Below, piece after piece: positions 2,155-61,555 of a DNA stretch of 64,000 nt. The notes beneath the pieces are model-generated. The model made no database searches and was not told where the DNA came from. It saw nothing but the letters and a program-made list of their open reading frames with translations. How positions within the stretch are numbered: position 1 is the first letter of the stretch; each line of letters starts with the position of its first letter. The stretch lies in the sequence record OZ346222.1, one strand, 5' to 3'. The DNA is from a phage. A program made the translations under genes and the position numbers.

Positions 2155-2571
2155 ATGACATTAGAAGATATCATTGTTAAACCTGAGAACTATGACCAAT
2201 ACAACCTGTCAACTCAATCTGTAGACCTTGGATGCGCCACGGTCAGTGCGTGGCCGGTTAACGGAAAAGAGCTAGATAAATGCTTAGAAGCTCACATGTC
2301 TATTAACAAGTTTCTGGATGAAAATACTCACTGGCTTGAGGGTGCAGGAGTATATGCTTCATGGTTGGAGAGTATGGGATTCGACTACCAATCTGAAGAA
2401 GGGTGGTGGAGCTATTTAGCTATCTGTCCAGAGACGCTACAATGCTTCATGAAATACTCTGAAGATTTAGAGTACCGGGCGGTGGTTGATAGTGCTATTG
2501 CCCGTTATAGCCGTAAACCTTTTTCCCACGACATTAAAACTGTGGAAGAGTTTGTTGAAGTTTTCTGTTGA
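2155..2571 (+). CDS. hypothetical protein (138 aa)
   Basis: Track ORF; AAGGAGA RBS. Confidence 0.6.
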   Translation: MTLEDIIVKPENYDQYNLSTQSVDLGCATVSAWPVNGKELDKCLEAHMSINKFLDENTHWLEGAGVYASWLESMGFDYQSEEGWWSYLAICPETLQCFMKYSEDLEYRAVVDSAIARYSRKPFSHDIKTVEEFVEVFC

Positions 2572-2596
2572 CACAGGTTGAAAGGTGTGCAATTAT
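2568..2596 (+). promoter_or_regulatory. sigma70-like promoter
   Basis: TTGACA, 17-nt spacer, AATTAT; overlaps stop of upstream gene. Confidence 0.4.
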
Positions 2597-2667
2597 AACT
2601 TCATATGACTGGAGGACGTGATGAACGAAGAAAACTGGGATGTATAACTAACAGGAGGCCACTGCCC

Positions 2668-2865
2668 ATGATTTATCGAATCCGTGTAAGAGAAGATGCA
2701 CCAGGCTGTTACTTTGACTGGCGTGGGTGGTGGTTTCTCCACCCAATGGATGGACTCACAGATAGAATGCTGGATGCTGCCCTTTATACAGATACCGACA
2801 TAGAGTATAATCTCTATCTGAAGGACGGTATAGATAACGGCCTGTTTGAAGCAATTCCTGTGTAA
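2668..2865 (+). CDS. hypothetical protein (65 aa)
   Basis: Track ORF 2605..2865 trimmed to the ATG that follows an AGGAGG RBS. Confidence 0.5.
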   Translation: MIYRIRVREDAPGCYFDWRGWWFLHPMDGLTDRMLDAALYTDTDIEYNLYLKDGIDNGLFEAIPV

Positions 2866-2933
2866 GAGACTGTGATAGCTATGTTTTATGATCTTCCTGT
2901 AGCGCCACCACCTGTTGAACCCGGAGAACTAAG

Positions 2934-3359
2934 ATGATCTATGAAATGCCAAAACTGATTCGTGACGATGCCCAAAACGCTCACACCATTATTATGGGCA
3001 AACGCATGGATATTATTTGTCATAAAGATTTCTGGGAAGGAAGTTACTTCACAGAGTATTTTGGTAAACTGGATAATGGTCTGCTGATCCAGTTCTACAC
3101 CGATGCGGAAAACAACATTCCCTGGGAGTTCGAAACTGAAGATATTCATAAACTTTTCACCTTCCTCGATATTAAGGTTAAGGCCAAGTTTGAAGAGGGT
3201 GAGTGCGACGATTGTGGATTTTATGAGGTAACAGATTTCTATCTTCCAAGTGGTAAGAACCTTTACTATGAAAGCCACTTCGGTAACTCAAATATGCCAC
3301 AGTGCTGGACTGAGTTTTTTGAAATTGTGGAAGAGGAGCTGGCATATCGTGATTATTGA
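2934..3359 (+). CDS. hypothetical protein (141 aa)
   Basis: Track ORF; GGAGA RBS. Confidence 0.55.
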   Translation: MIYEMPKLIRDDAQNAHTIIMGKRMDIICHKDFWEGSYFTEYFGKLDNGLLIQFYTDAENNIPWEFETEDIHKLFTFLDIKVKAKFEEGECDDCGFYEVTDFYLPSGKNLYYESHFGNSNMPQCWTEFFEIVEEELAYRDY

Positions 3360-3807
3360 TACTGTAGAGGGAGATTTAATCTCCCTTTTTAAGAGCGGTG
3401 CTGGTCACCTGATCCACGGTTGTAACTGCTTCCACACAATGGGTAAGGGTGTAGCAAAACAGATTGCCCGTGAGTTCCCTCAAGCATTGGAAGCTGATAA
3501 AATGACTATGCACGGTTGCCTAAGTAAACTGGGCGCGTTCTCCCGCTGGGAGCACTTATCTCCGAGAGGTATTGTCTACGGAATAAATCTGTATACTCAG
3601 TTCTACCCAGGGCCTAATGCTGAATATTTCTCAATACTGAAAGGCTTTGAGCGAGTCAATGAAGTATTTGAGGGGTCGATTTTACCATTCTACATCCCTA
3701 AGATCGGGTGCGGCATAGGTGGTTTGAAGTGGGAACATGTAGAGGACATTATTAACCTTGCCACTTTTGATATAGATATTATCGTGGTGGAGTACAAAGA
3801 GTGTTGA
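3250..3807 (+). CDS. macro-domain-like protein (putative ADP-ribose binding/processing)
   Basis: Track ORF; glycine-rich segments HGCNCFHTMGKGVAKQIA and KIGCGIGG resemble macro domain loops; start uncertain because the 5' end overlaps the upstream ORF. Confidence 0.5.
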   Translation: MVRTFTMKATSVTQICHSAGLSFLKLWKRSWHIVIIDTVEGDLISLFKSGAGHLIHGCNCFHTMGKGVAKQIAREFPQALEADKMTMHGCLSKLGAFSRWEHLSPRGIVYGINLYTQFYPGPNAEYFSILKGFERVNEVFEGSILPFYIPKIGCGIGGLKWEHVEDIINLATFDIDIIVVEYKEC

Positions 3808-3832
3808 CAGCTATATTTTAAGATGGTATAGT
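3804..3832 (+). promoter_or_regulatory. sigma70-like promoter
   Basis: TTGACA, 17-nt spacer, TATAGT. Confidence 0.5.
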
Positions 3833-3861
3833 CGCCACAACGATTAAGACAGAGGAGCACT

Positions 3862-4056
3862 ATGGAGACTAAAATCTTAATTCTAGCTGTGATAGATACA
3901 ACAGAAGGAGCCATGTTTGAATCTGCAGGAGGGTATTTCTACCTGCCCTATGGAAAAAGAACTTCCGAGCCGAGTAAAGATTCAATCCTTAAAGTGTTCC
4001 CGTGTGCTTTCTGGCTGGAGATCTTGGTAGAAGATTGCAGAGGACTAGGGAGATAA
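3862..4056 (+). CDS. hypothetical protein (64 aa)
   Basis: Track ORF; GAGGAG RBS. Confidence 0.5.
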   Translation: METKILILAVIDTTEGAMFESAGGYFYLPYGKRTSEPSKDSILKVFPCAFWLEILVEDCRGLGR

Positions 4057-4058
4057 TT

Positions 4059-4253
4059 ATGAGAAACAAGAAAGAGCTTTACTCTGGTGAGTGGATAAAC
4101 GATCAACAGGTAGGAGAGGTAACCTGCTTCCGGTGCTTTACTAGGTACAATCTTAAAACTGCACCAAAAAGTGTTCCAAAGACTGACGGTTATTACATAA
4201 AAGAACCTCATTGCCCAAAATGCAAATGCCGATTATACTGGAGTAACCTGTAA
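4059..4253 (+). CDS. small zinc-ribbon protein (64 aa)
   Basis: Track ORF 4002..4253 trimmed to internal ATG; CxxC...CPKCKC pairs. Confidence 0.5.
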   Translation: MRNKKELYSGEWINDQQVGEVTCFRCFTRYNLKTAPKSVPKTDGYYIKEPHCPKCKCRLYWSNL

Positions 4254-4257
4254 AAGA

Positions 4258-4285
4258 TTGACATCTGAAAACTGCGGTGTATAAT
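4258..4285 (+). promoter_or_regulatory. sigma70-like promoter
   Basis: TTGACA, 16-nt spacer, TATAAT. Confidence 0.6.
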
Positions 4286-4316
4286 ATAAACATAAACTAG
4301 CAGAGAGTGATATATT

Positions 4317-4508
4317 ATGGTAATTTTTAATCGAGACGGTATCATAGTTAGACAGCACCCATTCCTTGAATACTATCAAATTGAGCAATGGTGCTACGGG
4401 GATTGCAGTCACTCCTATGGGCAAAGTTGGGGATATCGCACAGTTTTTGAATCAACAGATCTTGATAAGGTAAGACAGAAAGTTTTAGAACTTATTAACA
4501 ACAAGTGA
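4317..4508 (+). CDS. hypothetical protein (63 aa)
   Basis: Track ORF downstream of consensus promoter. Confidence 0.55.
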   Translation: MVIFNRDGIIVRQHPFLEYYQIEQWCYGDCSHSYGQSWGYRTVFESTDLDKVRQKVLELINNK

Positions 4509-4515
4509 GTATGAT

Positions 4516-4851
4516 ATGGTAACATTAGAAAGACGTAAAGCTATCGCCGCCACACTGGCAGACATCTTTTGGGAGTGCAATTTAAAAGATACCCGATATT
4601 GTGGCGCATCTGTAGATGCATTATTCCCACGGCCCACTATTGTTGCAATGGGAAACCTGTCAAACGTGGTGTATGGAGCATGGGACAAAGAAGGTGGATT
4701 TTATATCTGGCAACCTGACTACGGGACCTGGAAAGAGGTAAGGGGTGCGGATGACTTTGGGCCTGCAGTTGCCAAAACGATGGATGGCTGGAAAATCTAT
4801 GTCGGTAACGACATGAAGCTGAAAGGCGAGATTGTTTACTGGTTACCTTAA
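4516..4851 (+). CDS. hypothetical protein (111 aa)
   Basis: Track ORF in co-oriented array. Confidence 0.55.
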   Translation: MVTLERRKAIAATLADIFWECNLKDTRYCGASVDALFPRPTIVAMGNLSNVVYGAWDKEGGFYIWQPDYGTWKEVRGADDFGPAVAKTMDGWKIYVGNDMKLKGEIVYWLP

Positions 4852-4872
4852 TAAAACGCAGGAGATAAAGTT

Positions 4873-5118
4873 ATGAACAAAGGGTGGACATTTGTAGACG
4901 GCGTTAAAAACATGCCTCTAGGAAAGTATATTGTAGCCATGGCAGATGAGAATGGCAAGGTGGATTTCGGAGTTTGCGAGGTTGTTCTTGCAGGATCTGG
5001 TGACTATGCTCACAAAACTGGGATAATTAACGGTCATTTCTACTTTGATTACAACCCTGTTGTGGCGTATATGGCTATGCCAGAGTTCGAGCTCCCAAAG
5101 GAGGGTGCGGATGTTTAA
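4873..5118 (+). CDS. hypothetical protein (81 aa)
   Basis: Track ORF; GGAGA RBS. Confidence 0.55.
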   Translation: MNKGWTFVDGVKNMPLGKYIVAMADENGKVDFGVCEVVLAGSGDYAHKTGIINGHFYFDYNPVVAYMAMPEFELPKEGADV

Positions 5119-5308
5119 GCTTAAATCTGCATGGAACATCGCTGTGGGGGACGAGATCCGCATCCCAGGTGGAAAGACCATTATGAAGATATCTCGTATC
5201 GAGTACGAAGGTGATCGTGTATTTCATATCTTTGCAGAAGATGGTCGAGAAATTTATATACAGGCAGGCTCTCACATCTATATTCGTAAGAAAGGGGACG
5301 ACAAATGA
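5111..5308 (+). CDS. hypothetical protein (65 aa)
   Basis: Track ORF 5045..5308 trimmed to ATG after AAGGAGGG RBS. Confidence 0.45.
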   Translation: MFKLKSAWNIAVGDEIRIPGGKTIMKISRIEYEGDRVFHIFAEDGREIYIQAGSHIYIRKKGDDK

Positions 5309-5634
5309 CAGAGATCATCATTTCAACTGCAGGGTATGTGTTCCTGACAATCATTGCACTGACCATTCTGGTGGTGGTATATGGAATTGTTATTCTCCCT
5401 ATTCTTGAGACAATTAGTTTGTGTCGGTGTTGGAGAAAGGCTTACGGTCCACAGCCGTGGAAGGACTGGCCCCACCTGGTGCACATAGCGTTCTCTTATG
5501 CTTATGATCACGCCAGCAGTGCATGCATAACCGGGTATCACGCCCACAACTGGAGCTGGGAAGGGTTGAGGAAATGGAATGTTACAAAGACCATACCTCT
5601 GCGCATGTACAAACCTAAAAACAAAGACAGCTGA
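5305..5634 (+). CDS. membrane protein (109 aa)
   Basis: Track ORF; ATGA coupling; hydrophobic N-terminal helix. Confidence 0.55.
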   Translation: MTEIIISTAGYVFLTIIALTILVVVYGIVILPILETISLCRCWRKAYGPQPWKDWPHLVHIAFSYAYDHASSACITGYHAHNWSWEGLRKWNVTKTIPLRMYKPKNKDS

Positions 5635-5947
5635 TACTTGAAAATCCCTGGCATATCAAGTGTAAGGAGGATTTCTAAAATGGATTTCCTCCTTTTGATA
5701 TTTCACCGGGCCAGATATTTTAAAATTCTTAGAAAATCAGAAAATGGATCGAAAACTAAAATGGATTTTTCAAGACAGGCACGATAAGATGTGCTGCTCA
5801 TTCTATCGTTCGCACCGTACTTTAAGTCACTATTCCAGATTTTTCCGCACATACTCTCACCCTTCTACCAGAACTTTCCCAGCTTACCTCTGACCTTTTA
5901 TAACAATAAGTCCATTATTATCAGAAAGTTTCGGCACATCTCTTTCG

Positions 5948-6140
5948 GTACTCGATCTGTTTTTCATTTCAAAGACCTGATTTTCTGAAAATTTTTCTCG
6001 ATAAATTTCTTAGTACTCGATCTGTTTTTCATTTCAAAGACCTGATTTTCTGAAAATTTTTCTCGATAAATTTCTTAGTACTCGATCTGTTTTTCGTTTT
6101 CTGAATCGGATTTTCTGGAAATCGTTCCAGCTCTCGACCT
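5948..6140. repeat. tandem direct repeat, about 64-bp unit, two full copies plus a diverged third
   Basis: Unit GTACTCGATCTGTTTTTCATTTCAAAGACCTGATTTTCTGAAAATTTTTCTCGATAAATTTCTTA repeated exactly twice, third copy diverges. Confidence 0.8.
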
Positions 6141-6305
6141 GAAATTTTTGGGGACGAAATCGATTTTTCGTTTTCAGAAATGGATTTTTAAAATTTCTAT
6201 ATGGGAATATTTTATGGGATACTGTTTTATAGGAAATTGTTACGGAGGGTAATTAGCATGCTAATTAAATTTATTAAATGCGAGGAGTTCTCATTTAGAA
6301 TTTTG

Positions 6306-6495
6306 AATGATAATCATTCTCGTTTGCAGAATAACGGGCAGGCCCGGTGATTGTCTCCCGGCCCCTACTGCCCCGGCTTGTTATTATAGTATCACACAGG
6401 ACAAAGAAAGCAAGGATTTTTTGCATAAATTTTTAAATGATAATGATAACCGTTCTCATTTTATGCAGCGCCCATCCCCGGTGGTTGTCTCCCCC
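6306..6495. repeat. two about 60-bp direct repeats ending in GC-rich core CCGGTG(A/G)TTGTCTCCC
   Basis: AATGATAAT...TTGCAG...CCGGTGATTGTCTCCCGG at about 6306-6365 and a variant at about 6436-6495; third inverted copy of the core at about 16115-16139. Confidence 0.7.
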
Positions 6496-6716
6496 GTCAC
6501 CGGTGCCTGCCGTCCTTTCGATAGGTATATCGTGCCACCTGGCGGGGCCGCTGTCAACACTTTTCAAAAAATTTTTCTAACCTGATGCGCTAACCGCTGC
6601 AACCTGGCGGGGTCAGCCTGGCAGGACCTAACTGACCGGGTAGGAGAGAATGAAGGCTTGTAAACCTGGTGGGCCTATGCTACAGGATAGGTAACAATTG
6701 AAGAGGAGGTACAAAA

Positions 6717-7713: not shown

Positions 7714-8118
7714 ATGAATAAGAACGTACGCCGCATCATGAACGAACTGGCAAACGATGAAAAAATTATTGACATGCATTTGATCAACATTTGCCGCCGT
7801 TGTGTAACATACAACAACCGCGCCGCAAAAGCGCGTGAGATGAACGCAAAAGGCACCTTAAAGCCATTCCAGGTGGTGGTAAAGGCCATTAAAGATGTAA
7901 CTAATACGGCAAACCAGGTACAGGGGAACACCAACGAGAGTACCAATATTGATCCGGCTTACATCATGAAACGGATCCGGACCTGCAAGAACAAAGAGCA
8001 AGTGTATAATGTCATAGACTGGTTGGATTCTATGGGCGATGTGGTGTACAATAGATTCTCGGCAGCTATTGAGATCCAGCTTGACAGGTTAGACGGTAAA
8101 GTACTTAAAACTTACTAA
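7714..8118 (+). CDS. hypothetical protein (134 aa)
   Basis: Track ORF. Confidence 0.6.
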   Translation: MNKNVRRIMNELANDEKIIDMHLINICRRCVTYNNRAAKAREMNAKGTLKPFQVVVKAIKDVTNTANQVQGNTNESTNIDPAYIMKRIRTCKNKEQVYNVIDWLDSMGDVVYNRFSAAIEIQLDRLDGKVLKTY

Positions 8119-8124
8119 ATTTAT

Positions 8125-8164
8125 TTTTAGATGGCCTTGACTCCAGGGCCATCAATAAAGTAAA
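8125..8164 (+). repeat. conserved intergenic element, copy 1
   Basis: TTTTTAGATGGCCTTGACTCCAGGGCCATCAATAAAGTAAA; palindromic arms GATGGCC/GGCCATC around an embedded TTGACT. Confidence 0.8.
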
Positions 8165-8208
8165 TTAATCTCAGCTAAGCGAAAAAGGGGGCTTTAAGAT
8201 GAGCACTA

Positions 8209-8397: not shown

Positions 8398-8739
8398 ATG
8401 ACTACTATGGCCGCCGCAGAAAAAGCTATTCAGATCGCCGCACTGAAAAAACAGATCGCAGACCTTGAGAACAAGATCGATAACTTTGAAATCGACGAGG
8501 ACAAGTACGACGAAAACTATGATGAATGGTTAGACGAGATCTACGGCGAAATTATGATCGGAAACATTTCTTTTCTTCCGTCGCGTATCCTCAAGGAGCT
8601 AGATCCTATCGCTTACCGCTGCGGATTTAGCGACTACATCGACAGCCTGGATATTGAGGACGATGAAGAATACCAGGAATTACAGACAGAGTTAGAAGAA
8701 GCAAAAGAAGAGCTTGCAGAACTGGAAGAAAACGAGTAA
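8398..8739 (+). CDS. hypothetical acidic coiled-coil protein (113 aa)
   Basis: Track ORF; AAAGGAGAA RBS. Confidence 0.6.
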   Translation: MTTMAAAEKAIQIAALKKQIADLENKIDNFEIDEDKYDENYDEWLDEIYGEIMIGNISFLPSRILKELDPIAYRCGFSDYIDSLDIEDDEEYQELQTELEEAKEELAELEENE

Positions 8740-8745
8740 GATTAT

Positions 8746-8785
8746 TTTTAGATGGCCTTGACTCCAGGGCCATCAATAAAGTAAA
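8746..8785 (+). repeat. conserved intergenic element, copy 2
   Basis: Identical 40-mer to copy 1. Confidence 0.8.
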
Positions 8786-8828
8786 CTTTATACTGTTAAC
8801 ACTGAACTAATGCATAGGAGTTAAAACC

Positions 8829-12476: not shown

Positions 12477-12483
12477 AATTTAT

Positions 12484-12524
12484 TTTTAGATGGCCTTGAC
12501 TTCAGGGCCATCGATAAAGTAAAT
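12484..12524 (+). repeat. conserved intergenic element, copy 3
   Basis: TTTTTAGATGGCCTTGACTTCAGGGCCATCGATAAAGTAAA, two mismatches to copies 1 and 2. Confidence 0.8.
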
Positions 12525-12560
12525 TTAAACCCTGTTAAAATACCACGCAGTTAACAAGGA

Positions 12561-51963: not shown

Positions 51964-52041
51964 TGCATAGTGTGGTTATGTAGGTGCCAATTGAAAAACC
52001 ATCATTCAATTGGCTACCGTTACCTACTAAACCATCCTACA

Positions 52042-53325
52042 TCATTCCAGAACCTCCCAAGTATCTGGGTTAACATTTCGGACGCAGATACCGACAGGGA
52101 ATTGGTAGTTGTTGTCTTCTGTCCTTGCTTGATATTTGAAGGTGACAAACTTGCCGATCATTTCCTGCATCCTGTCATAGCTACGCTCCTCGTGCGTGCC
52201 TTTCATCTTCATTTTAACAACAACACCTTCCTTGTCAACACAGATAAGAACACCTTCATCATTCTTATCTTTCTCAACGTCAATAACTTTCACCTCTGCG
52301 TCGTTGAACTTTTTCCATTTCAATGCTTCAGATGTTCGCTGACCATACTCATATTTACCACAGAAGTTACGCATAATGGTACCTTCATATCCTTCAGACA
52401 TAAATATACCAACAGACTCTTCGCACCGATCAACCGTATATGCAAGCTCTGCATCAACAACCTTAATATGATCAAGCATCAAAGAAGTAATAGCACCGTT
52501 TGCCTCCATAAGATCCTTACAGCGACCAGACTCTGTTTCAGGATCCCACCACACCTTATCGCTAGGAATATCGAAAATATGATACTCTAAGTCGTAGCTG
52601 CAGTACCCTTCGTAACGCAAATCATCACGAACAGGCTCAACATCAACAGGAATGTCCACCTTGTTGAAGTTTTTGTATGTTGCTAAACCTGCTTTAATCG
52701 CAGCCTGACGGCGTTTTTTATCTGCCTTGTAGTCTTTATCGATCTCGGCCTGAATTTCTTCCTGTGTGCGCCACCGTTTAGCAAGAGACACTATTTTCTG
52801 CAGAGGTAGACCATGAATATAGAGCTCTCCGTCGAGCTGTTTAATCCCGGTGGTTAGGTGGAAAGAGCGAAGTTGCTCCAGAAGCTTTCCTTGAATAGGG
52901 TAGGACTTATTACCACGGGAAATAAATTTAGGCTCACCATTCTGGAAAACAACAAGTAGACGAAGGCCATCTAACTTACGCAAGATCCAGCAAGGTAATT
53001 TAAGTGCCTTGCCACGCTTCAGGTAGTCATGCACCAACATGGGTAAAAGATCAACACCTTGCTCACAATCTTCCATACTCTCCACGTACCCGAGTCGGAC
53101 CTGTTTTTCCCACTTACTGATCGCTTCCAGCTCGGCCTGTTGCTCAGCTGTAGTTTCATTGGCGCGACCCACGTTCTTAGGTGTGCAGATCGTCTCTTTG
53201 TATTGCAGTTTACCATCAAGCTTGCCAAACTCTACGATAACCTTATCACCATCCGTGAATACTTTCCACTGTTGGTAGCTGCCATCTTTGTTCAGTGCGT
53301 ACAGTGTTGTTTTGATTTGATGCAT
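52042..53325 (-). CDS. DNA ligase (probably ATP-dependent)
   Basis: 427-aa track ORF; adenylation motif KLDGLR (KxDGxR). Confidence 0.7.
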   Translation of the reverse strand: MHQIKTTLYALNKDGSYQQWKVFTDGDKVIVEFGKLDGKLQYKETICTPKNVGRANETTAEQQAELEAISKWEKQVRLGYVESMEDCEQGVDLLPMLVHDYLKRGKALKLPCWILRKLDGLRLLVVFQNGEPKFISRGNKSYPIQGKLLEQLRSFHLTTGIKQLDGELYIHGLPLQKIVSLAKRWRTQEEIQAEIDKDYKADKKRRQAAIKAGLATYKNFNKVDIPVDVEPVRDDLRYEGYCSYDLEYHIFDIPSDKVWWDPETESGRCKDLMEANGAITSLMLDHIKVVDAELAYTVDRCEESVGIFMSEGYEGTIMRNFCGKYEYGQRTSEALKWKKFNDAEVKVIDVEKDKNDEGVLICVDKEGVVVKMKMKGTHEERSYDRMQEMIGKFVTFKYQARTEDNNYQFPVGICVRNVNPDTWEVLE

Positions 53326-53594
53326 TACTCGGCCTCTTCCTTAAAAATTTTAAACATCTCTTCTTTACTCATTACCAACCAGTCCCCCATAAAATCAACA
53401 AGCCAATCACCCTGGTACAAGACTAGGTTACCAAACGGCTCTACAAGCTCACACATGCGACGAAGATCTCTGGTCCGAACAGGTGACGATGTAAACACAC
53501 CTGTATCAATCCACCGTTGCAGATCAGATACTGATGAAGAGCTTCCGTCAAACTGGTGTGCTTCTACAGGTTTAGCAAGATTAAATAACGGCAT
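53325..53594 (-). CDS. hypothetical protein (89 aa)
   Basis: Track ORF. Confidence 0.5.
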   Translation of the reverse strand: MPLFNLAKPVEAHQFDGSSSSVSDLQRWIDTGVFTSSPVRTRDLRRMCELVEPFGNLVLYQGDWLVDFMGDWLVMSKEEMFKIFKEEAE

Positions 53595-53919
53595 TGCAGT
53601 CCTCCTTATCTAATAGATCTTTTATTGGGTAAACAAGCAGGTGTGGATCGTAATAATTTATAGTTTTATTCTGCCACACTATGAACTTAATTACAACTAA
53701 ATTTACCACATCTTTATCTCCATGTAGTCCAACACACAGATTTGTCCATATTTTGTGGTTGAATACTTTGCTGTCGATGTAGATCTTAGTGTCAAACTTA
53801 TCCTCTATCCTGCCTATAAGTTTAACCAACTCTTTCATCTGATCCCCAAACACAGCATCGTTTTCAAGATCTCTAGAGTGCTTGTACATAACTATCTGCC
53901 TCACTTGCATACTTTCCAC
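53581..53919 (-). CDS. hypothetical protein (112 aa)
   Basis: Track ORF. Confidence 0.5.
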   Translation of the reverse strand: MESMQVRQIVMYKHSRDLENDAVFGDQMKELVKLIGRIEDKFDTKIYIDSKVFNHKIWTNLCVGLHGDKDVVNLVVIKFIVWQNKTINYYDPHLLVYPIKDLLDKEDCNAVI

Positions 53920-53952
53920 AACAAGTAAAGCCGGGTAATCCCGGCCATGTTG

Positions 53953-54666
53953 TTAAATATACTCTGCTACATCCTTGAAGCTCGAAGGCTTCATGATCTT
54001 ACCTTTACTGTCAAGGAATATGATAACTTTATTACCGTTGTAGAATTCTTCCTTAGCAACAAAACCTTCATATCGACCATCAAAGCGTCGCTCAAGATCT
54101 TTAATCTCCAACTCTATGAGTTGTTCAGCAGGCATATCTGCACTGGCACCGTGTGAATACCGTAGATGGTTGACCCGTGCAAACTTGCTGTCATTCGATT
54201 TGAGAACCTTACGCATCATCCCGCACACATCGCCGCGAAGCTGGAACAGCAAAGCTGTTGACAACTCCGCTAAACGGTAAGCTGACGCTCTTTGCTTGGA
54301 TGTGTTTTTCGCAGCGATCAGTGTGTCATAGAACTCACCGATCTTGAACTTAAGACCTCGTGGATTATCAAACAGGTTTGACCACTTTTCGTGATTGTCA
54401 TTAACAAGATAAGCTGCATAACTTGTGACAACGTGAAGATCGCAGGCCTCCTTTAGCAGGTGATCTCCACCATCACCTTTCTCCAGCTCTTCCAAAACTT
54501 CATTGAACTCTTCCTCAATGAAGCTAAGCTGTAATTCGAATGGTGTGTATGATTTTTTCACTTTAGCTGCCACACGGTTCCAGTTTTCCACCCAGTTGGC
54601 AGACCAAAGGTAGTTTTCAGGTTGGGATAGTTTTTCCAGGTTGTCAATTAATTTAGTATTCAGCAT
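53953..54666 (-). CDS. hypothetical protein (237 aa), possible MazG-like nucleotide pyrophosphohydrolase
   Basis: Track ORF; EEEFNEVLEELE...D acidic helix reminiscent of MazG; weak. Confidence 0.3.
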   Translation of the reverse strand: MLNTKLIDNLEKLSQPENYLWSANWVENWNRVAAKVKKSYTPFELQLSFIEEEFNEVLEELEKGDGGDHLLKEACDLHVVTSYAAYLVNDNHEKWSNLFDNPRGLKFKIGEFYDTLIAAKNTSKQRASAYRLAELSTALLFQLRGDVCGMMRKVLKSNDSKFARVNHLRYSHGASADMPAEQLIELEIKDLERRFDGRYEGFVAKEEFYNGNKVIIFLDSKGKIMKPSSFKDVAEYI

Positions 54667-54679
54667 TAAAGGTCTCCTT

Positions 54680-55441
54680 TTAAAGTTCCATAAAGTTTTC
54701 TACAGTCTCAATGAATGTTTTATCAGAGAAGGCATCAACCGCACCGTTAAACCAAACTGGGATGCCACGATCCTCATACTGGTAAATATCACTACGTGAA
54801 ATGCCATTCTCCTCTAGATGCTGTGAGTCGTATTTATTAACGATCAGTAGTTTGGTTCCCTTATTGCAGGCAGGGAATAGCTCCCAGTTAAAATTGATAA
54901 CTGTGTTGGAGCACCCTACAAGGATAACCATATCATTGCTCGTAAGAGAAGTCAACAGGTCATACATGTCTGTATACTTCGGAGCTACTTCTCCGAAGAA
55001 CACCACATTAGGCTTAACCCAGGTATACTTTCCTGCGTCTACCTCAGAGTATCCAATGTCCTTAATGACGTCACTTCCTTCATCGTCCTCATAGACTATT
55101 TCTGGCAAATACCCGTGGACATGTAAAATATCTTCATGTTTTACACCAGCACGCTCCAGCAAATCATCTACATTGGTGGTAAGGTTGATCACACGACCAG
55201 ACCAGCGGGAATACCACTCAGCGATCCGAAGATGTGCAAGGTTAGGCTCAACACTGCCTAAAGCTACACGACGTGCATTGTAAAAGTCATGCACCTTATA
55301 GTAGTTCTTGGCAAAGGTGTGGATGTTGCACACCTCATCGATGCTGAAATTCTCCCACATTGCAGTGCTACCAGATCGGAAAGTGGGAATACCAGATTCA
55401 GCGCTCAAACCAGCACCGGAGATAATAATCAGTCGTCGCAT
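54680..55441 (-). CDS. Sir2-family NAD-dependent deacylase-like protein
   Basis: Track ORF; GAGLSAESGIPTFR NAD-binding signature, HG and FFGE motifs. Confidence 0.8.
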   Translation of the reverse strand: MRRLIIISGAGLSAESGIPTFRSGSTAMWENFSIDEVCNIHTFAKNYYKVHDFYNARRVALGSVEPNLAHLRIAEWYSRWSGRVINLTTNVDDLLERAGVKHEDILHVHGYLPEIVYEDDEGSDVIKDIGYSEVDAGKYTWVKPNVVFFGEVAPKYTDMYDLLTSLTSNDMVILVGCSNTVINFNWELFPACNKGTKLLIVNKYDSQHLEENGISRSDIYQYEDRGIPVWFNGAVDAFSDKTFIETVENFMEL

Positions 55442-55449
55442 AAGTGTCC

Positions 55450-55800
55450 TCAGTAGATGTTTTGTTTAATCTCTATTCCAAACTTTTTAAACGAGTCAGC
55501 TGCAAGCATGAATTTACGAGCCGCTGATGGGTTAGAAGTATGCACGAAAATCTTCACGTTGTCAACTACAGGAGGCTTACCAAATACAAATTTTTCCTCC
55601 AACATAGATAGGCAATCGTACCCTTCGAATACCTCTCCAAGGTCGTTGTCCATATGCCACTCAGAAACGCGTCTGTAGAGCTTTCTATTATCGTTAATAA
55701 AATCTATAAACTCGGAGGAATTCTTTAGCCAAACAGCGTCTTGGAGCCCGTACTTTGACGGATCTCTCAAGTCATCTAGCCACACAATCAACTTCTTCAT
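55450..55800 (-). CDS. hypothetical protein (116 aa)
   Basis: Track ORF; ATGA coupling to rnlA. Confidence 0.5.
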   Translation of the reverse strand: MKKLIVWLDDLRDPSKYGLQDAVWLKNSSEFIDFINDNRKLYRRVSEWHMDNDLGEVFEGYDCLSMLEEKFVFGKPPVVDNVKIFVHTSNPSAARKFMLAADSFKKFGIEIKQNIY

Positions 55801-56732
55801 TGCATATAGTTCTCGTTGTGGAAATAGTAATCGAGTATCTCACGGCGTTCCTGCTCCAGGAGGCAGTTCCATACATCCTCTGTGTAGTTGTTACGAATGA
55901 AGTTTACCATGCCGTAAAACTCTTCGTCAACACGTTTAAAGATATCATCATCCCAAATCTTCCAAGCTTTACCCCTCATTACGGCCTTCCGTGCCAGATA
56001 GTATGGAGACTTAATCTTCAGCTGCAGATCATAAGGGTAGTAAGGCTTACGAATCATATACCCTTCACCTCTTGTTTCTGCAGCTAATTCTTTTGCATAA
56101 CTGAACGGAATTTCACGCACAGTGTGAGGACGTTTTGCACCAAGGTATTTGGCAATCCCATCTAAAGCTGCTTCTGGTAGCATTATTCCAGAATCATTAT
56201 ATCTGCAACCTATCAAATATGCGCCACGATCTTCCTGAACAATATGCGGATCTGAGGGGTGACAAATTTCAAACATGAATGTCATATTTTCATTGCCCAT
56301 AACCTTCTTGATAAGATCTAAATTACCACATTGCTCCTGGATGGTTTCCTTTGCAAGGTTACAATATGGAGAATCAAGAGACCCGGTTGTTGAGAACAAT
56401 AGTTCACCTTTATGAGATGACACCACACCAAGGAATCCGTTCTTTTTCTCTACCGCCGTCACAAGCTTATTGTCAGGCAGGTTGGTGGAGTTTTCTCCCA
56501 AGTTAAACACTTTTGTAAAGGGCCATGCCACAACATTTCCTTCATTACCGACAACAATGCCTCGGCACTCCAGTAATCGAGGAGACAAATGCCATAAGTT
56601 GTTGTAGAATACTTTTCTGGCATATTTATAGATCTTTAACCCAAGGTCTGGGTGATATCTGCTGGTTACAAGACCTTTGTCAACTAGGTCGTCTGCATTA
56701 AAATACTTCATCATACGTTCCTCATTTGTCAT
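55797..56732 (-). CDS. rnlA: RNA ligase 1 (T4 RnlA-like)
   Basis: Track ORF; LLECRGIVV, VFNLGEN and lysine motif VEKKNGFLGVVS align with T4 RnlA LLECRGIMF, FFNLNEN, LTKEDGSLVSTY. Confidence 0.75.
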   Translation of the reverse strand: MTNEERMMKYFNADDLVDKGLVTSRYHPDLGLKIYKYARKVFYNNLWHLSPRLLECRGIVVGNEGNVVAWPFTKVFNLGENSTNLPDNKLVTAVEKKNGFLGVVSSHKGELLFSTTGSLDSPYCNLAKETIQEQCGNLDLIKKVMGNENMTFMFEICHPSDPHIVQEDRGAYLIGCRYNDSGIMLPEAALDGIAKYLGAKRPHTVREIPFSYAKELAAETRGEGYMIRKPYYPYDLQLKIKSPYYLARKAVMRGKAWKIWDDDIFKRVDEEFYGMVNFIRNNYTEDVWNCLLEQERREILDYYFHNENYMQ

Positions 56733-56775
56733 TTTGTCAGTCTATCCTGCCACACAAATAACCTAGTGTCAACAC

Positions 56776-56804
56776 TTGAAATTAACAAAACAGTTAGGTA
56801 TACT
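56776..56804 (+). promoter_or_regulatory. sigma70-like promoter in divergent intergenic region
   Basis: TTGAAA, 17-nt spacer, TATACT. Confidence 0.5.
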
Positions 56805-56832
56805 ATCGTTGAAATTAAAACGGAGGATTACT

Positions 56833-57243
56833 ATGTCTAAAATGCTATATATCGTGCGTGGTCTACCAGGGTCTGGCAAATCAACACTGGCAAGTGCGCT
56901 ATCTTTAGAAGGTCTGTATCCACATTTTGAGAACGACATGTTCTGGTACGACGATGATGGAAATTACAACTGGGATGCAAGTAAAGTAACACTTGCAGCA
57001 AAATGGTGCAAAGATAACGTAGAAGATATGATGCGTATGGGATACGACCGTATCGTGGTAAGTAATACATTTACAAAAGAAAAATATGTGCAAGAATATA
57101 TTGACATGGCGATCAGTCATGGGTATAGTTATACCGTAATCGTGGTTGAAAACCGCCATGGTAGTAAAAGCATTCATGATGTTCCAGACAGGGTTGTGGA
57201 TCGTATGGAACGCCAGCTTAAAAACTGCATTAAACTTAAATGA
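56833..57243 (+). CDS. polynucleotide 5'-kinase domain protein (T4 Pnk kinase-like)
   Basis: Track ORF 56776..57243 trimmed to ATG after ACGGAGGA RBS; P-loop GLPGSGKST as in T4 Pnkp. Confidence 0.65.
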   Translation: MSKMLYIVRGLPGSGKSTLASALSLEGLYPHFENDMFWYDDDGNYNWDASKVTLAAKWCKDNVEDMMRMGYDRIVVSNTFTKEKYVQEYIDMAISHGYSYTVIVVENRHGSKSIHDVPDRVVDRMERQLKNCIKLK

Positions 57244-57250
57244 GGAATGT

Positions 57251-57805
57251 ATGAAATACTTTGTAACAAGCGACACACACTTTCTCCACCAGCGGGTCAT
57301 GGAGTTTGACTCATGTCAAAAACACAGATCTCAGTATGATCACAATCTTGACAGTATGAATGCGGGGATCATCACCAAGTGGAACTCTGTTGTGTCACCT
57401 GCAGACACTGTGTTTCACTTAGGAGATATTGCGTGCACTAATGATAAGAATATTAACAAATTGCTCCCAGATGTTCTAAATATGTTGAACGGACATATTA
57501 TTCTTGTTCGTGGTAACCATGACACAAGGACGACTGTCAGAATTATGAAAGAGTTCGGTCATGAGGTTGTAGATTATTACGAGCTTCGCCACAACAAGAA
57601 TTTGATCTGTATGAGCCATTACCAGTTTGCAAAGTGGAACAGAAAGCCTCACGGATCGGTCCAACTGTTCGGTCATGCTCACGGAACCACACAGCAGTTG
57701 TTTGGCAGGCAGTTTGATGTCGGTTGGGATGTGTGGGGGAGACTCTTACCATTAGAAGAGGCATACCGTATTGCAATGAGTCTTGCTATTGACAGCGTGG
57801 AGTAA
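57251..57805 (+). CDS. calcineurin-like metallophosphoesterase
   Basis: Track ORF 57146..57805 trimmed to ATG after GAGGAA RBS; motifs DTHF, GDIA, GNHD, GHAHG. Confidence 0.7.
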   Translation: MKYFVTSDTHFLHQRVMEFDSCQKHRSQYDHNLDSMNAGIITKWNSVVSPADTVFHLGDIACTNDKNINKLLPDVLNMLNGHIILVRGNHDTRTTVRIMKEFGHEVVDYYELRHNKNLICMSHYQFAKWNRKPHGSVQLFGHAHGTTQQLFGRQFDVGWDVWGRLLPLEEAYRIAMSLAIDSVE

Positions 57806-57852
57806 TCCCTGCTATTTTAAAGAAAATTGCCACACAAGGAGAATCAGGAGAT

Positions 57853-58203
57853 ATGAAAGATGGGGATAAGCTGCTATATCTTAAAGTCCCCCTTGAAATA
57901 CTGTCTATGTCAAAAGTTTTGAATGACACAACTGGTGAGGTTGTTGTTCTTGACTTATATGACAAGATCGTATACTGCTACCTGCACAACTGGTATAAGC
58001 TTGGAGGAAATTCACGCTTCACGCCCAGCACAAGGAAAATTGCAGCAGATATTGGGATAAAGAAAACAAAAGCAGCAGCGTGCGTTAAAACTTTAGAATG
58101 TGCAGGAGTGGTTGAAATATCCACGCAAGGGAGAGGTAAAAGATGCACATTTTCCAAAGTTTTGCCACCAGAAGAAGTTATTCGAATGTCAACAACTGGT
58201 TAG
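57853..58203 (+). CDS. hypothetical protein (116 aa)
   Basis: Track ORF; AAGGAGAA RBS. Confidence 0.55.
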   Translation: MKDGDKLLYLKVPLEILSMSKVLNDTTGEVVVLDLYDKIVYCYLHNWYKLGGNSRFTPSTRKIAADIGIKKTKAAACVKTLECAGVVEISTQGRGKRCTFSKVLPPEEVIRMSTTG

Positions 58204-60742: not shown

Positions 60743-60817
60743 GCCCTGTTAGCTTAGTGGATAAAGCAGCGGCCTTCTAAGCCGTTGACACTGGTTCGAG
60801 TCCAGTACGGGGTGCCA
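60743..60817 (+). tRNA. tRNA-Arg (anticodon TCT)
   Basis: Manual fold: 7-bp acceptor with G-U pairs, anticodon loop CTTCTAA, T-loop TTCGAGT, 3' CCA encoded. Confidence 0.7.
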
Positions 60818-60821
60818 AATT

Positions 60822-60908
60822 GGGGAGTTATCCCGTAGAGGTAGCGGTGTAGACTGTAAATCTATTGTCATTGCGACTCGGGTGGTTCGACTCCACCACT
60901 CCCCACCA
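60822..60908 (+). tRNA. tRNA-Tyr (anticodon GTA), long variable arm
   Basis: Acceptor GGGGAGT/ACTCCCC, anticodon loop CTGTAAA, long extra arm, T-loop TTCGACT, CCA encoded. Confidence 0.75.
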
Positions 60909-61022
60909 AATTTATATTTTTAGATGCATAAATAATACAGATAATGGCATTGATATTTATCGTCGTTTATACTAGTCACTAACTGCTCGAAAATCAGTGT
61001 CATTATCAGTATAATTTATAAA

Positions 61023-61113
61023 GGAGGGTAGGGAGCAATGGTGCTCAAGCGGTATTGAAAACCGTCCCGTTGAGGATGACTCGATGATGGTTCGATTCCA
61101 TTACTCTCCGCCA
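61023..61113 (+). tRNA. tRNA-Ser (anticodon TGA), long variable arm
   Basis: Acceptor GGAGGGT/ACTCTCC, anticodon loop ATTGAAA, about 20-nt extra arm, T-loop TTCGATT, CCA encoded. Confidence 0.7.
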
Positions 61114-61211
61114 CATTGTTGACCTTGTAATTAAGCGAAAGCCGGAAGCAGAACCGGATTATCAAATGTTACAGTCGTCATCGCCGACTAGCAACATGGT
61201 CAACATACTGA

Positions 61212-61308
61212 GCTAGGTAAGCCCTTTGGCAAGGGCGAGGATTTTTAATCCTGAAAATAGACGAGGTAGTCGTTGAATACATAGGTGGTTCGATTCCATC
61301 ACCTAGCA
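61212..61308 (+). tRNA. atypical tRNA-like gene (possible anticodon TTT) with about 30-nt extra arm
   Basis: Acceptor GCTAGGT/ACCTAGC, D-arm GCCC/GGGC, 4-bp anticodon stem with loop TTTTTAA, T-arm GGTGG TTCGATT CCATC; no CCA; extra region too long for a canonical tRNA. Confidence 0.35.
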
Positions 61309-61315
61309 CCTTTTT

Positions 61316-61391
61316 GCTGATGTAGCACAATCGGTAGTGCAATTGATTTGTAATCAATAGGTTGTAGGTTCAAGTCCTGCCATCAGCACCA
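61316..61391 (+). tRNA. tRNA-Thr (anticodon TGT)
   Basis: Acceptor GCTGATG/CATCAGC, anticodon stem ATTGA/TCAAT with loop TTTGTAA, T-loop TTCAAGT, CCA encoded. Confidence 0.75.
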
Positions 61392-61392
61392 A

Positions 61393-61467
61393 GGCCCTGT
61401 AGCTGGAAGGTTCAAGCAAGCGACTCATAATCGCCAGACGGTGGTTCAATTCCACCCAGGGCCACCA
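61393..61467 (+). tRNA. tRNA-Met or Ile2 (anticodon CAT), elongator type
   Basis: Acceptor GGCCCTG/CAGGGCC (G1-C72 paired), anticodon loop CTCATAA, T-loop TTCAATT, CCA encoded. Confidence 0.7.
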
Positions 61468-61478
61468 AATAGTAAATA

Positions 61479-61555
61479 CTCCGCGTAGCTCAGCTTGGTA
61501 GAGCGCCTGATTTGGGATCAGGAGGTCGAGTGTTCGAATCACTCCGTGGAGACCA
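61479..61555 (+). tRNA. tRNA-Pro (anticodon TGG)
   Basis: Acceptor CTCCGCG/CGTGGAG, anticodon stem CCTGA/TCAGG with loop TTTGGGA, T-loop TTCGAAT, CCA encoded. Confidence 0.75.

Follow-up and report, generated by a model that had tools for sequence, protein, structure and literature searches.

The macrodomain gene and its surroundings

The window is the complete stretch of 64,000 nucleotides of phage DNA analyzed here (sequence record OZ346222.1). It is part of the genome of a Vequintavirus, an rV5-like E. coli myophage. For positions 2500-5000, matches at 80-95% identity were obtained in 119 phage records; these are almost exclusively Vequintavirus, with rV5_ev168 as the closest record (94.9%). 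Positions 52000-58000 are 99.8% identical to phage slur16. The first 9 kb consist of small genes, all on the plus strand, and sigma-70-like promoter matches are enriched in this early region (36 observed versus 18.4 expected). Both features fit the label 'early block' that the first-pass annotation had given to it.

Within this region, the gene of a macrodomain protein of the T4 Tk.4/AdfM family is found at 3349..3807 on the plus strand (152 amino acids and a stop codon, GTG start). It had previously been placed at 3250-3807. An open reading frame from a GTG at 3250 to 3807 is indeed present and contains both glycine-rich motifs that had drawn attention to it, so the gene itself stands, but its proposed start does not. 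GTG 3250 is merely the first start codon of the longest reading frame. It falls 110 nt within the upstream gene (2934-3359), which overlaps the first 33 codons of that frame. The true start is most likely GTG 3349, giving a product of 152 amino acids. This start is preferred because of the GAGGAG Shine-Dalgarno sequence at 3333..3338 (plus strand, 10 nt upstream of the GTG), because of the 11-nt overlap with the upstream stop found in relatives (the rV5_ev168 and slur16 annotations and the Bas54 listing agree on it) and because this GTG recurs in each of the three Vequintavirus alleles that were compared. The resulting gene length of 459 nt equals that of the rV5_ev168, slur16 and Bas54 gene. 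Records of relatives already name the gene 'macro domain protein', 'phosphatase' or 'T4-like protein with Macro domain, Poa1p_like family'.

The upstream gene (2934..3359, plus strand) encodes 141 amino acids (PHROG 8157), and its 3' end overlaps the macrodomain start by 11 nt. Upstream of this two-gene unit, a sigma-70-like promoter match (10/12) is located at 2783..2811 and a second one at 2568-2596, both on the plus strand and both consensus matches only. A strong, near-perfect match (TTGACA-17-TATAGT with TG) at 3804..3832, on the same strand, overlaps the stop codon of the macrodomain gene, and this candidate promoter likely marks the start of the next early transcription unit. The genes neighboring the macrodomain gene are small phage ORFs and no darT gene is adjacent. 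A partnership between the 141-residue protein and the macrodomain, modeled on the DarT-binding domain, was considered and rejected, as the gene of the former is confined to Vequintavirus and Krischvirus. In the genome of RB49 the homologue of this gene is found about 9 kb away from tk.4.

Fold and class of the macrodomain

The macro domain proposed by the first-pass annotation was borne out by profile search and structure prediction alike. The protein matches the Pfam Macro family (PF01661) with an E-value of 1.3e-7 and 32 bits, against a gathering score of 22, over the full profile (positions 1-118 of 118), and PHROG 335 with an E-value of 1e-60. Its AlphaFold2 model, built from a 63-sequence alignment, has a mean pLDDT of 95.9 and a pTM of 0.91. 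Model and Foldseek matches show the three-layer alpha/beta/alpha macro fold: the top matches are TARG1, Poa1p, the DarG proteins of T. aquaticus and M. tuberculosis, BT1257 and SCO6735 (probability 1.00), and TM scores against solved macrodomains amount to 0.7-0.85. Enzymes of the MacroD/Af1521 type appear as distant structural matches only.

The same set emerges when the profile is compared to PDB sequences (1e-15 to 1e-18 for TARG1, Poa1p, DarG, BT1257 and SCO6735), where DarG is the best match. In NCBIfam the single match is antitoxin_DarG (2e-12) and in PADLOC it is DarG (2.1e-14), in both cases covering the macro part of DarG alone. The DarG equivalog NF048014 of NCBIfam is matched at positions 3-143 of 338 with 47 bits, against a cutoff of 250. 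The product of 3349-3807 is thus a stand-alone macrodomain of the ALC1-like class (TARG1/DarG/SCO6735/Poa1p).

The active site: glutamine in place of the catalytic lysine

Three motifs line the putative binding site. Loop 1, predicted to bind ADP-ribose, reads H23-G-C-N26-C-F-H-T30-M-G-K-G-V-A-K-Q-I-A40 (3415..3468, plus strand) and includes the motif GKGVAKQIA noticed earlier (residues 32-40, nt 3442-3468). Its N26 matches N22 of DarG, while H23 and T30 match H23 and S30 of Poa1p. The motif N80-L-Y-T-Q84 follows at 3586..3600 (plus strand). Loop 2, predicted to bind phosphate, corresponds to the other motif noticed earlier, KIGCGIGG (K118-I-G-C-G-I-G-G125, 3700..3723, plus strand).

At the second motif the protein departs from DarG and TARG1. 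Q84 aligns with K80 of DarG, K84 of TARG1 and Q85 of SCO6735, and G124 aligns with the catalytic D125 of TARG1. In the HMM alignment, the catalytic pair Lys84/Asp125 of TARG1 is hence absent from the window protein, which has Q84 and G124 instead. H23 and N26 align with H24 and N27 of SCO6735, so that the combination typical of SCO6735 is found: a Gln at the position of the catalytic Lys, together with the His and Asn of loop 1. As the Lys nucleophile of DarG and TARG1 is lacking, the macrodomain resembles SCO6735. The latter strips ADP-ribose from thymidine in DNA and shields Streptomyces against DarT, and its Q85A mutant is inactive (PMC9411070).

Across 63 homologues H23, G24, N26, C27, M31, G34, A36, N80, Y82, T83, Q84, P117, I119, G120 and G122 are invariant or nearly so, with Q84 present in 63/63 family members. 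Both glycine-rich loops are conserved in the homologues, and the sequence suggests that the macrodomain binds ADP-ribose.

Relationship to T4 Tk.4

Homologues of the protein were detected by tblastn in 2810 phage records. In these searches it shares 41% identity with Tk.4 of T4/T2 over 150 of its 152 residues (E=1e-32) and 70% with Tk.4 of RB49. The motifs HGCNCFHTMG, NLYTQF-PGPN-EY and IG-GIG are common to T4 Tk.4 and the window protein, and H23, N26, T30, N80, Y82, T83, Q84, P117, G120 and G122 are invariant in the T4 Tk.4-family comparison.

Two forms can be distinguished in the family. The window protein belongs to the short-loop form together with T4 and RB49; this form has 10 residues between the Gln and the next conserved Tyr, PGPN and GIGG. 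In the long-loop form, found in Achelous and Mydo, the corresponding stretch comprises 12-19 residues and the later motif is mostly [LI]AGG. The same grouping appears in a neighbor-joining tree, where 252/300 bootstraps (84%) have a split with the window protein, T4 and RB49 on one side and Achelous and Mydo on the other.

What is known of T4 tk.4 comes from genetics. In a transposon library (HIDEN-SEQ) it was the sole gene depleted on DarTG2 hosts, and a clean knockout rendered T4 sensitive to DarTG2; the gene was named adfM, for anti-DarT factor, macrodomain (10.1101/2025.11.20.689424). The name AdfM was also given, in a separate study, to gp104 of PhiKZ, a Lys-type macrodomain. It de-ADP-ribosylates T-ADPr oligonucleotides and likewise has genetic support (PMC13309987). 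The literature search returned no test of Vequintavirinae on DarTG2 and no experiment on any Vequintavirus macrodomain.

Allele divergence and dispensability

The macrodomain gene is the most divergent of its neighborhood. Its nucleotide identity to slur16 is 76%, compared to 97% for the overlapping upstream gene and 97-98% for the next two upstream genes. The dS of the macrodomain gene is 1.39 versus 0.11 for the overlapping gene, and its dN/dS is about 0.1. Rapid positive selection was rejected as the cause of this divergence in view of both values, which point instead to old alleles that were exchanged by recombination. All catalytic residues are retained in the diverged alleles.

In the Vequintavirus Bas54, the gene bas54_0092, taken as the macrodomain gene by its position and size in the HIDEN-SEQ supplement, carries insertions at 31/31 TA sites and was classed as non-essential during growth on K-12. 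In these K-12 data, insertions are tolerated as well by the Bas54 genes for the sirtuin and the RNA ligase. Such tolerance on K-12 fits an accessory, condition-dependent role, as in counter-defense.

The Sir2 gene and its cluster

A Sir2-like protein had also been reported at 54680..55441, and it is real. The gene lies on the minus strand and encodes a class-III-like Sir2-family protein of 253 amino acids (PF02146, E=3e-27, 96 bits against a threshold of 24). The sirtuin motifs GAGLS (residue 9), TTNVD (88) and HVHG (107) are kept, as are the catalytic His (H109) and the class-III YxxR at residues 54-57. The Cys4 zinc ribbon is absent, because there is no Cys between H109 and FFGE at 148. Relative to SIRT5, some 25 residues are missing from this segment. 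The homologue of phage SP15 agrees in this and likewise lacks the zinc ribbon. The best matches are deacylases of the CobB/SIRT5 type. Profiles of defense-type Sir2 NADases (ThsA, DSR etc.) reach only 13.6 bits in PADLOC (E=0.0076), with no stretch passing alone.

The gene is flanked by a cREC (cyclic-phosphate processing receiver) domain gene (55450..55800, minus strand; PF20274, E=4.5e-15) and by a gene for a MazG-like protein (53953..54666, minus strand; a sub-threshold Pfam PRA-PH match, E=0.083, named nucleotide pyrophosphohydrolase in RefSeq). A T4 Rnl1-like RNA ligase gene (55797..56732, minus strand) adjoins the cREC gene. Across the divergent junction, the plus strand encodes a P-loop kinase (56833..57243; AAA_33, 2.4e-10), for which the annotation of relatives gives polynucleotide kinase, and a calcineurin-like phosphoesterase (57251..57805). 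A cluster of seven tRNA genes (60743..61555, plus strand) is located downstream of this RNA-repair-type cluster. The same neighborhood has been described for Escherichia phage V5 in section 3.7.3 of Iyer et al. 2022 (PMC9503650), where the sirtuin was predicted to act in a KptA-like manner in RNA-end repair and its clade was found to be uncoupled from any adjacent Macro gene. Experimental work on this phage sirtuin was not found in the literature search.

The first-pass annotation had read the macrodomain and the sirtuin together, as joint manipulation of NAD/ADP-ribose chemistry. This pairing did not hold up. The two genes lie 51 kb apart, on opposite strands and in different gene blocks, unlike the adjacent genes of one operon that make up the SirTM-macrodomain pairs. 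Among phages, 1026 records contain a homologue of the Sir2 protein; most of these phages are T5-like or Vequintavirinae-like, and an evenly spaced sample of 60 of these records contained no T4-like phage. In the HIDEN-SEQ annotation file, which covers the genes of T4 and Bas54, 'Sir2' or 'sirtuin' appears once, for a Bas54 gene. The T5-like phage SP15 encodes a Sir2 protein that is 57% identical, while a 6-frame hmmsearch of its genome did not find a macrodomain of this family (best E=0.02). Since SP15 has the Sir2 protein without the macrodomain and T4-like phages have the macrodomain without Sir2, the two distributions are largely independent. A single NAD/ADP-ribose module was rejected on the grounds of separate blocks and strands and of this independent occurrence.

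Candidate functions of the macrodomain

What the macrodomain acts on is judged here mainly from its relatives. The function with the strongest support is reversal of ADP-ribosylation by host toxins, for which DarTG had been named as an example in the first-pass annotation: the window protein is a member of the T4 Tk.4/AdfM family, and T4 depends on Tk.4/AdfM to withstand DarTG2. We infer that the Vequintavirus protein would share the substrate and role of T4 Tk.4, and on balance it is probably an early, dispensable anti-DarT2 DNA de-ADP-ribosylase, with a good deal of room left for other functions. In such a role, the protein would most likely be made early in infection from host-type promoters. 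It would remove the ADP-ribose that host DarT2 places on thymidines of single-stranded phage DNA, which would allow phage replication to continue. The macrodomain would in effect be a phage-borne orphan antitoxin of the DarG type. Catalysis may proceed as in SCO6735, with Q84 positioning the substrate and water in place of the Lys, together with N26 and H23.

Several observations speak against the anti-DarT2 function. The identity to T4 Tk.4 is just 41%; the GLAGG and the long loop behind the Gln, as present in the DNA hydrolase SCO6735, occur in the Adpp-like branch and not here; the His and Ser/Thr that were mutated in Poa1p structures are conserved in the window protein; and macrodomains are often promiscuous.

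A phosphatase has to be considered next to the hydrolase. Vibrio phage Gary encodes, in an Adps-macro-Namat operon, the Poa1p-like macrodomain Adpp, which turns ADPR-1''P into ADPR and which the phage requires to counter the aRES defense (10.64898/2026.01.28.702374). The window protein might be such an ADP-ribose-1''-phosphate phosphatase (Adpp/Poa1p-like), either clearing the ADPR-1''P that stems from RES-type NAD+ phosphorylase defenses (aRES) or processing the last by-product that arises when the Sir2-cREC cluster of the phage itself repairs RNA. In the latter version, the KptA-like sirtuin would yield ADPR>P, cREC would convert it to ADPR-1''P and the macrodomain would finally release ADPR. 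Vibrio phage Achelous, with the same gene order, encodes a macrodomain that is 35% identical to the window protein and keeps the Gln; it sits between PRPP-synthetase-like and NAMPT-like genes, which is the Adps-phosphatase-Namat arrangement of NARP1-AP. Poa1p is among the top matches in sequence and fold, its H23 and S30 matching H23 and T30 of the window protein, 'phosphatase' is a widespread annotation of relatives, and the sirtuin-cREC-RNA ligase cluster in the same genome is a predicted source of ADPR>P. Against this stands the genomic context: a homologue of Adps or Namat is present neither in the window nor in the complete Vequintavirus genome of slur16 (best E=0.36). NARP1 could therefore not rebuild ADPR into NAD+, and the pathway fed by Adpp is missing, so that the NARP1-AP role was rejected. 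The window protein also groups with T4 Tk.4 and not with the NARP1-associated form (84% bootstrap), whose long loop and GLAGG motif it does not have. The phosphatase function is further at odds with the occurrence of the Sir2 cluster without this macrodomain in SP15, and of the macrodomain without Sir2 in T4-like phages, as well as with the distance of 51 kb and the separate transcription blocks.

These comparisons need some care. Fold and Q84 do not suffice to identify the substrate, because the NARP1-AP relative of Achelous is also of the Gln type and Adpp of Gary is a phosphatase. The loop features do not map simply onto the substrate either, as the long loop and GLAGG are shared by the DNA hydrolase SCO6735. 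Still, the missing Adps and Namat genes, the loop form and the neighbor-joining split all favor, at the level of sequence, the T4-type function, and a phosphatase is considered rather unlikely.

The activity could also be broader than that of a DNA hydrolase. The macrodomain might de-ADP-ribosylate proteins or RNA broadly, erasing the marks of other host ADP-ribosyltransferase toxins, or tune the phage's own ADP-ribosylation, or deacylate O-acyl-ADP-ribose produced by the phage sirtuin. TARG1, the top structural match, hydrolyzes protein-linked ADP-ribose and goes by the name of O-acetyl-ADP-ribose deacetylase in the PDB, a name that relatives also bear in some databases. Moreover, SCO6735 is active on ADP-ribosylated PARP1 as well (PMC9411070), and the phage sirtuin retains deacylase-type motifs. 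The Lys84/Asp125 pair of TARG1 is nevertheless replaced by Q84 and G124, the similarity to MacroD/Af1521-type enzymes is only distant and the macrodomain is phyletically independent of Sir2, which leaves this broad activity a slim chance.

Removal of ADP-ribose-derived defense signals, the other function offered by the first-pass annotation, found no specific support. The macrodomain would here destroy or sequester immune signals such as the cyclic ADP-ribose isomers of Thoeris. Iyer et al. 2022 make the contextual argument that the domains with which phages process ADPr act more frequently on its soluble derivatives, and the macrodomain is predicted to bind ADP-ribose. On the other hand, the 1'' position of linear ADP-ribose conjugates or phosphates is where all of its near structural relatives act, known Thoeris anti-defense proteins were not seen among its homologues, and both characterized phage relatives (Tk.4 of T4 and Adpp of Gary) serve other roles. 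A function of this kind is very improbable.

Finally, the macrodomain may have two jobs and catalyze the final step of an NAD-dependent RNA-repair route whose genes are dispersed, although we consider this improbable. The zinc-less YxxR sirtuin would act like Tpt1/KptA on 2'-phosphate RNA ends and cREC would open the ADPR>P, after which the Gln-type macrodomain would remove the phosphate from ADPR-1''P and, in addition, erase DarT2 marks on DNA. In that case, the deep allelic replacement might be a sign that alleles are matched to different host toxins, perhaps via direct binding of DarT, as reported for SCO6735.

Comparison with known systems

Nothing of a new kind is found at these loci: the macrodomain family has already been annotated, with a characterized member in T4, and the Sir2 cluster is known from earlier work. 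Among the closest counterparts is T4 Tk.4, which has 155 amino acids compared to 152 here and aligns along the entire length. Behind the Gln, the T4 and RB49 proteins have the same short loop as the window protein, and T4 tk.4 is likewise set among early genes of a large virulent E. coli myophage. T4 belongs to another phage subfamily, however, and its gene is neighbored by vs, regB and tk rather than by small ORFs; the GTG start and the 11-nt overlap are further differences of the window gene.

SCO6735 (PDB 5e3b) and BT1257 from Bacteroides (2fg1/2afc) are ALC1-like as well, with Gln for the catalytic Lys and the His and Asn of loop 1. These are cellular proteins with only about 22-23% identity, a longer loop behind the Gln and GLAGG rather than GIGG. 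DarG (T. aquaticus 5m31, M. tuberculosis 5m3i) displays the same fold and the Asn (N22) matched by N26. By analogy, the activity proposed for the window protein, on DarT2-modified DNA, would be the same as that of DarG and PhiKZ gp104 AdfM. Both of these carry a Lys (K80 and K78, respectively) where the window protein has Gln, and in comparison to DarG the C-terminal DarT-binding domain and an adjacent darT are lacking.

Adpp of Gary, whose gene order recurs in Achelous, belongs to the same broad phage macrodomain family, in which the Achelous protein keeps the Gln, while His23 and Ser/Thr30 are matched in yeast Poa1p. In contrast to the window gene, adpp sits between adps and namat, which are absent here, and its product has the long loop and GLAGG and is separate in the neighbor-joining tree. 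The RNA-repair neighborhood of the V5-type sirtuin, for which a function has been predicted only, is present as the identical system in the window.

If the anti-DarT2 function is true, rV5-like phages, which are candidates for therapy and biocontrol, would carry a built-in antidote to DarTG2, and their host range on DarTG2-positive E. coli would depend on the macrodomain allele that they carry. Two phage roles have been demonstrated in this macrodomain family, namely anti-DarTG2 activity in T4 and the ADPR-1''P phosphatase of NARP1-AP. The Vequintavirus proteins could help to find the features that decide on the substrate, such as the short loop with GIGG versus the long loop with GLAGG.

Allelic replacement at the macro gene

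The macro gene (window 3349-3807, + strand), which encodes a macrodomain protein of the T4 Tk.4/AdfM family, was compared with its flanks (2155-3348 and 3862-5308). Judged by nucleotide divergence, it is an allelic hot spot in Vequintaviruses that, among those compared, are otherwise near-identical. Against the complete genome of slur16, the macro gene is 76% identical in nucleotide sequence, while the overlapping upstream gene reaches 97%. The same can be observed at synonymous sites, where dS is 1.39 for the macro gene versus 0.11 for its overlapping neighbor. Together with a dN/dS of ~0.1 at the macro gene, this difference in dS therefore indicates that recombination has swapped old macro alleles. 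The nearest relative of the macro protein outside Vequintavirus is Tk.4 of the Krischvirus RB49 (70%).

The upstream gene (2934-3359, +) encodes a 141-aa protein of PHROG 8157 and overlaps the start of the macro gene by 11 nt. Its homologues are confined to Vequintavirus and Krischvirus. This protein was considered as a fixed partner of the macrodomain and rejected, because its homologue in RB49 lies ~9 kb away from tk.4.

Other features of the early block

The stretch without long ORFs at 5640-6700 is far less conserved than its surroundings, with 64-84% identity to relatives over the part compared (5600-6100) versus ~95-99% in most nearby stretches. The early block also contains repeated elements of ~45-60 nt (8117-8166, 8739-8799 and 12479-12538). 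Since two of these overlap promoter-like sites (TTGACT-N18-TAAAyT), the repeats probably represent a reiterated early promoter module.

Host labels of related records

Queries with window 2500-5000, 52000-58000 and 54683-55441 retrieved 16 to 25 GenBank records titled 'Campylobacter phage' (C11, C12, C15 and A142, for example) whose identity to the E. coli Vequintavirus studied here is 94-100%. The Campylobacter host given in these records is probably an error, or stems from propagation of the phages on a contaminating host.

RNA-repair-type genes

A divergent RNA-repair-type cluster at 53953-57805 comprises an RNA ligase, a cREC (cyclic-phosphate processing receiver domain), a zinc-less sirtuin, a MazG-like protein, a P-loop kinase and a calcineurin-like phosphoesterase. 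The function of the sirtuin is a prediction from the literature. In SIRT5, acidic acyl groups are bound by the class-III YxxR motif. The phage sirtuin has kept this motif, which could in principle hold a 2'-phosphate.

Seven tRNA genes (60743-61555) are located ~3 kb downstream of the cluster. To the 99-nt tRNA-like gene at 61212-61310 (+), ARAGORN assigns a four-base anticodon (atcc) without an amino acid; the equivalent locus is labeled tRNA-Lys in the Bas52 record.

In Achelous, a T5-like Vibrio phage, genes for an RNA ligase, a P-loop ATPase and a phosphoesterase are followed immediately downstream by Adps-macro-Namat genes of the NARP1-AP type (L011, 1-6138). NAD+ reconstitution and RNA-repair-type genes therefore adjoin in the Achelous lineage.
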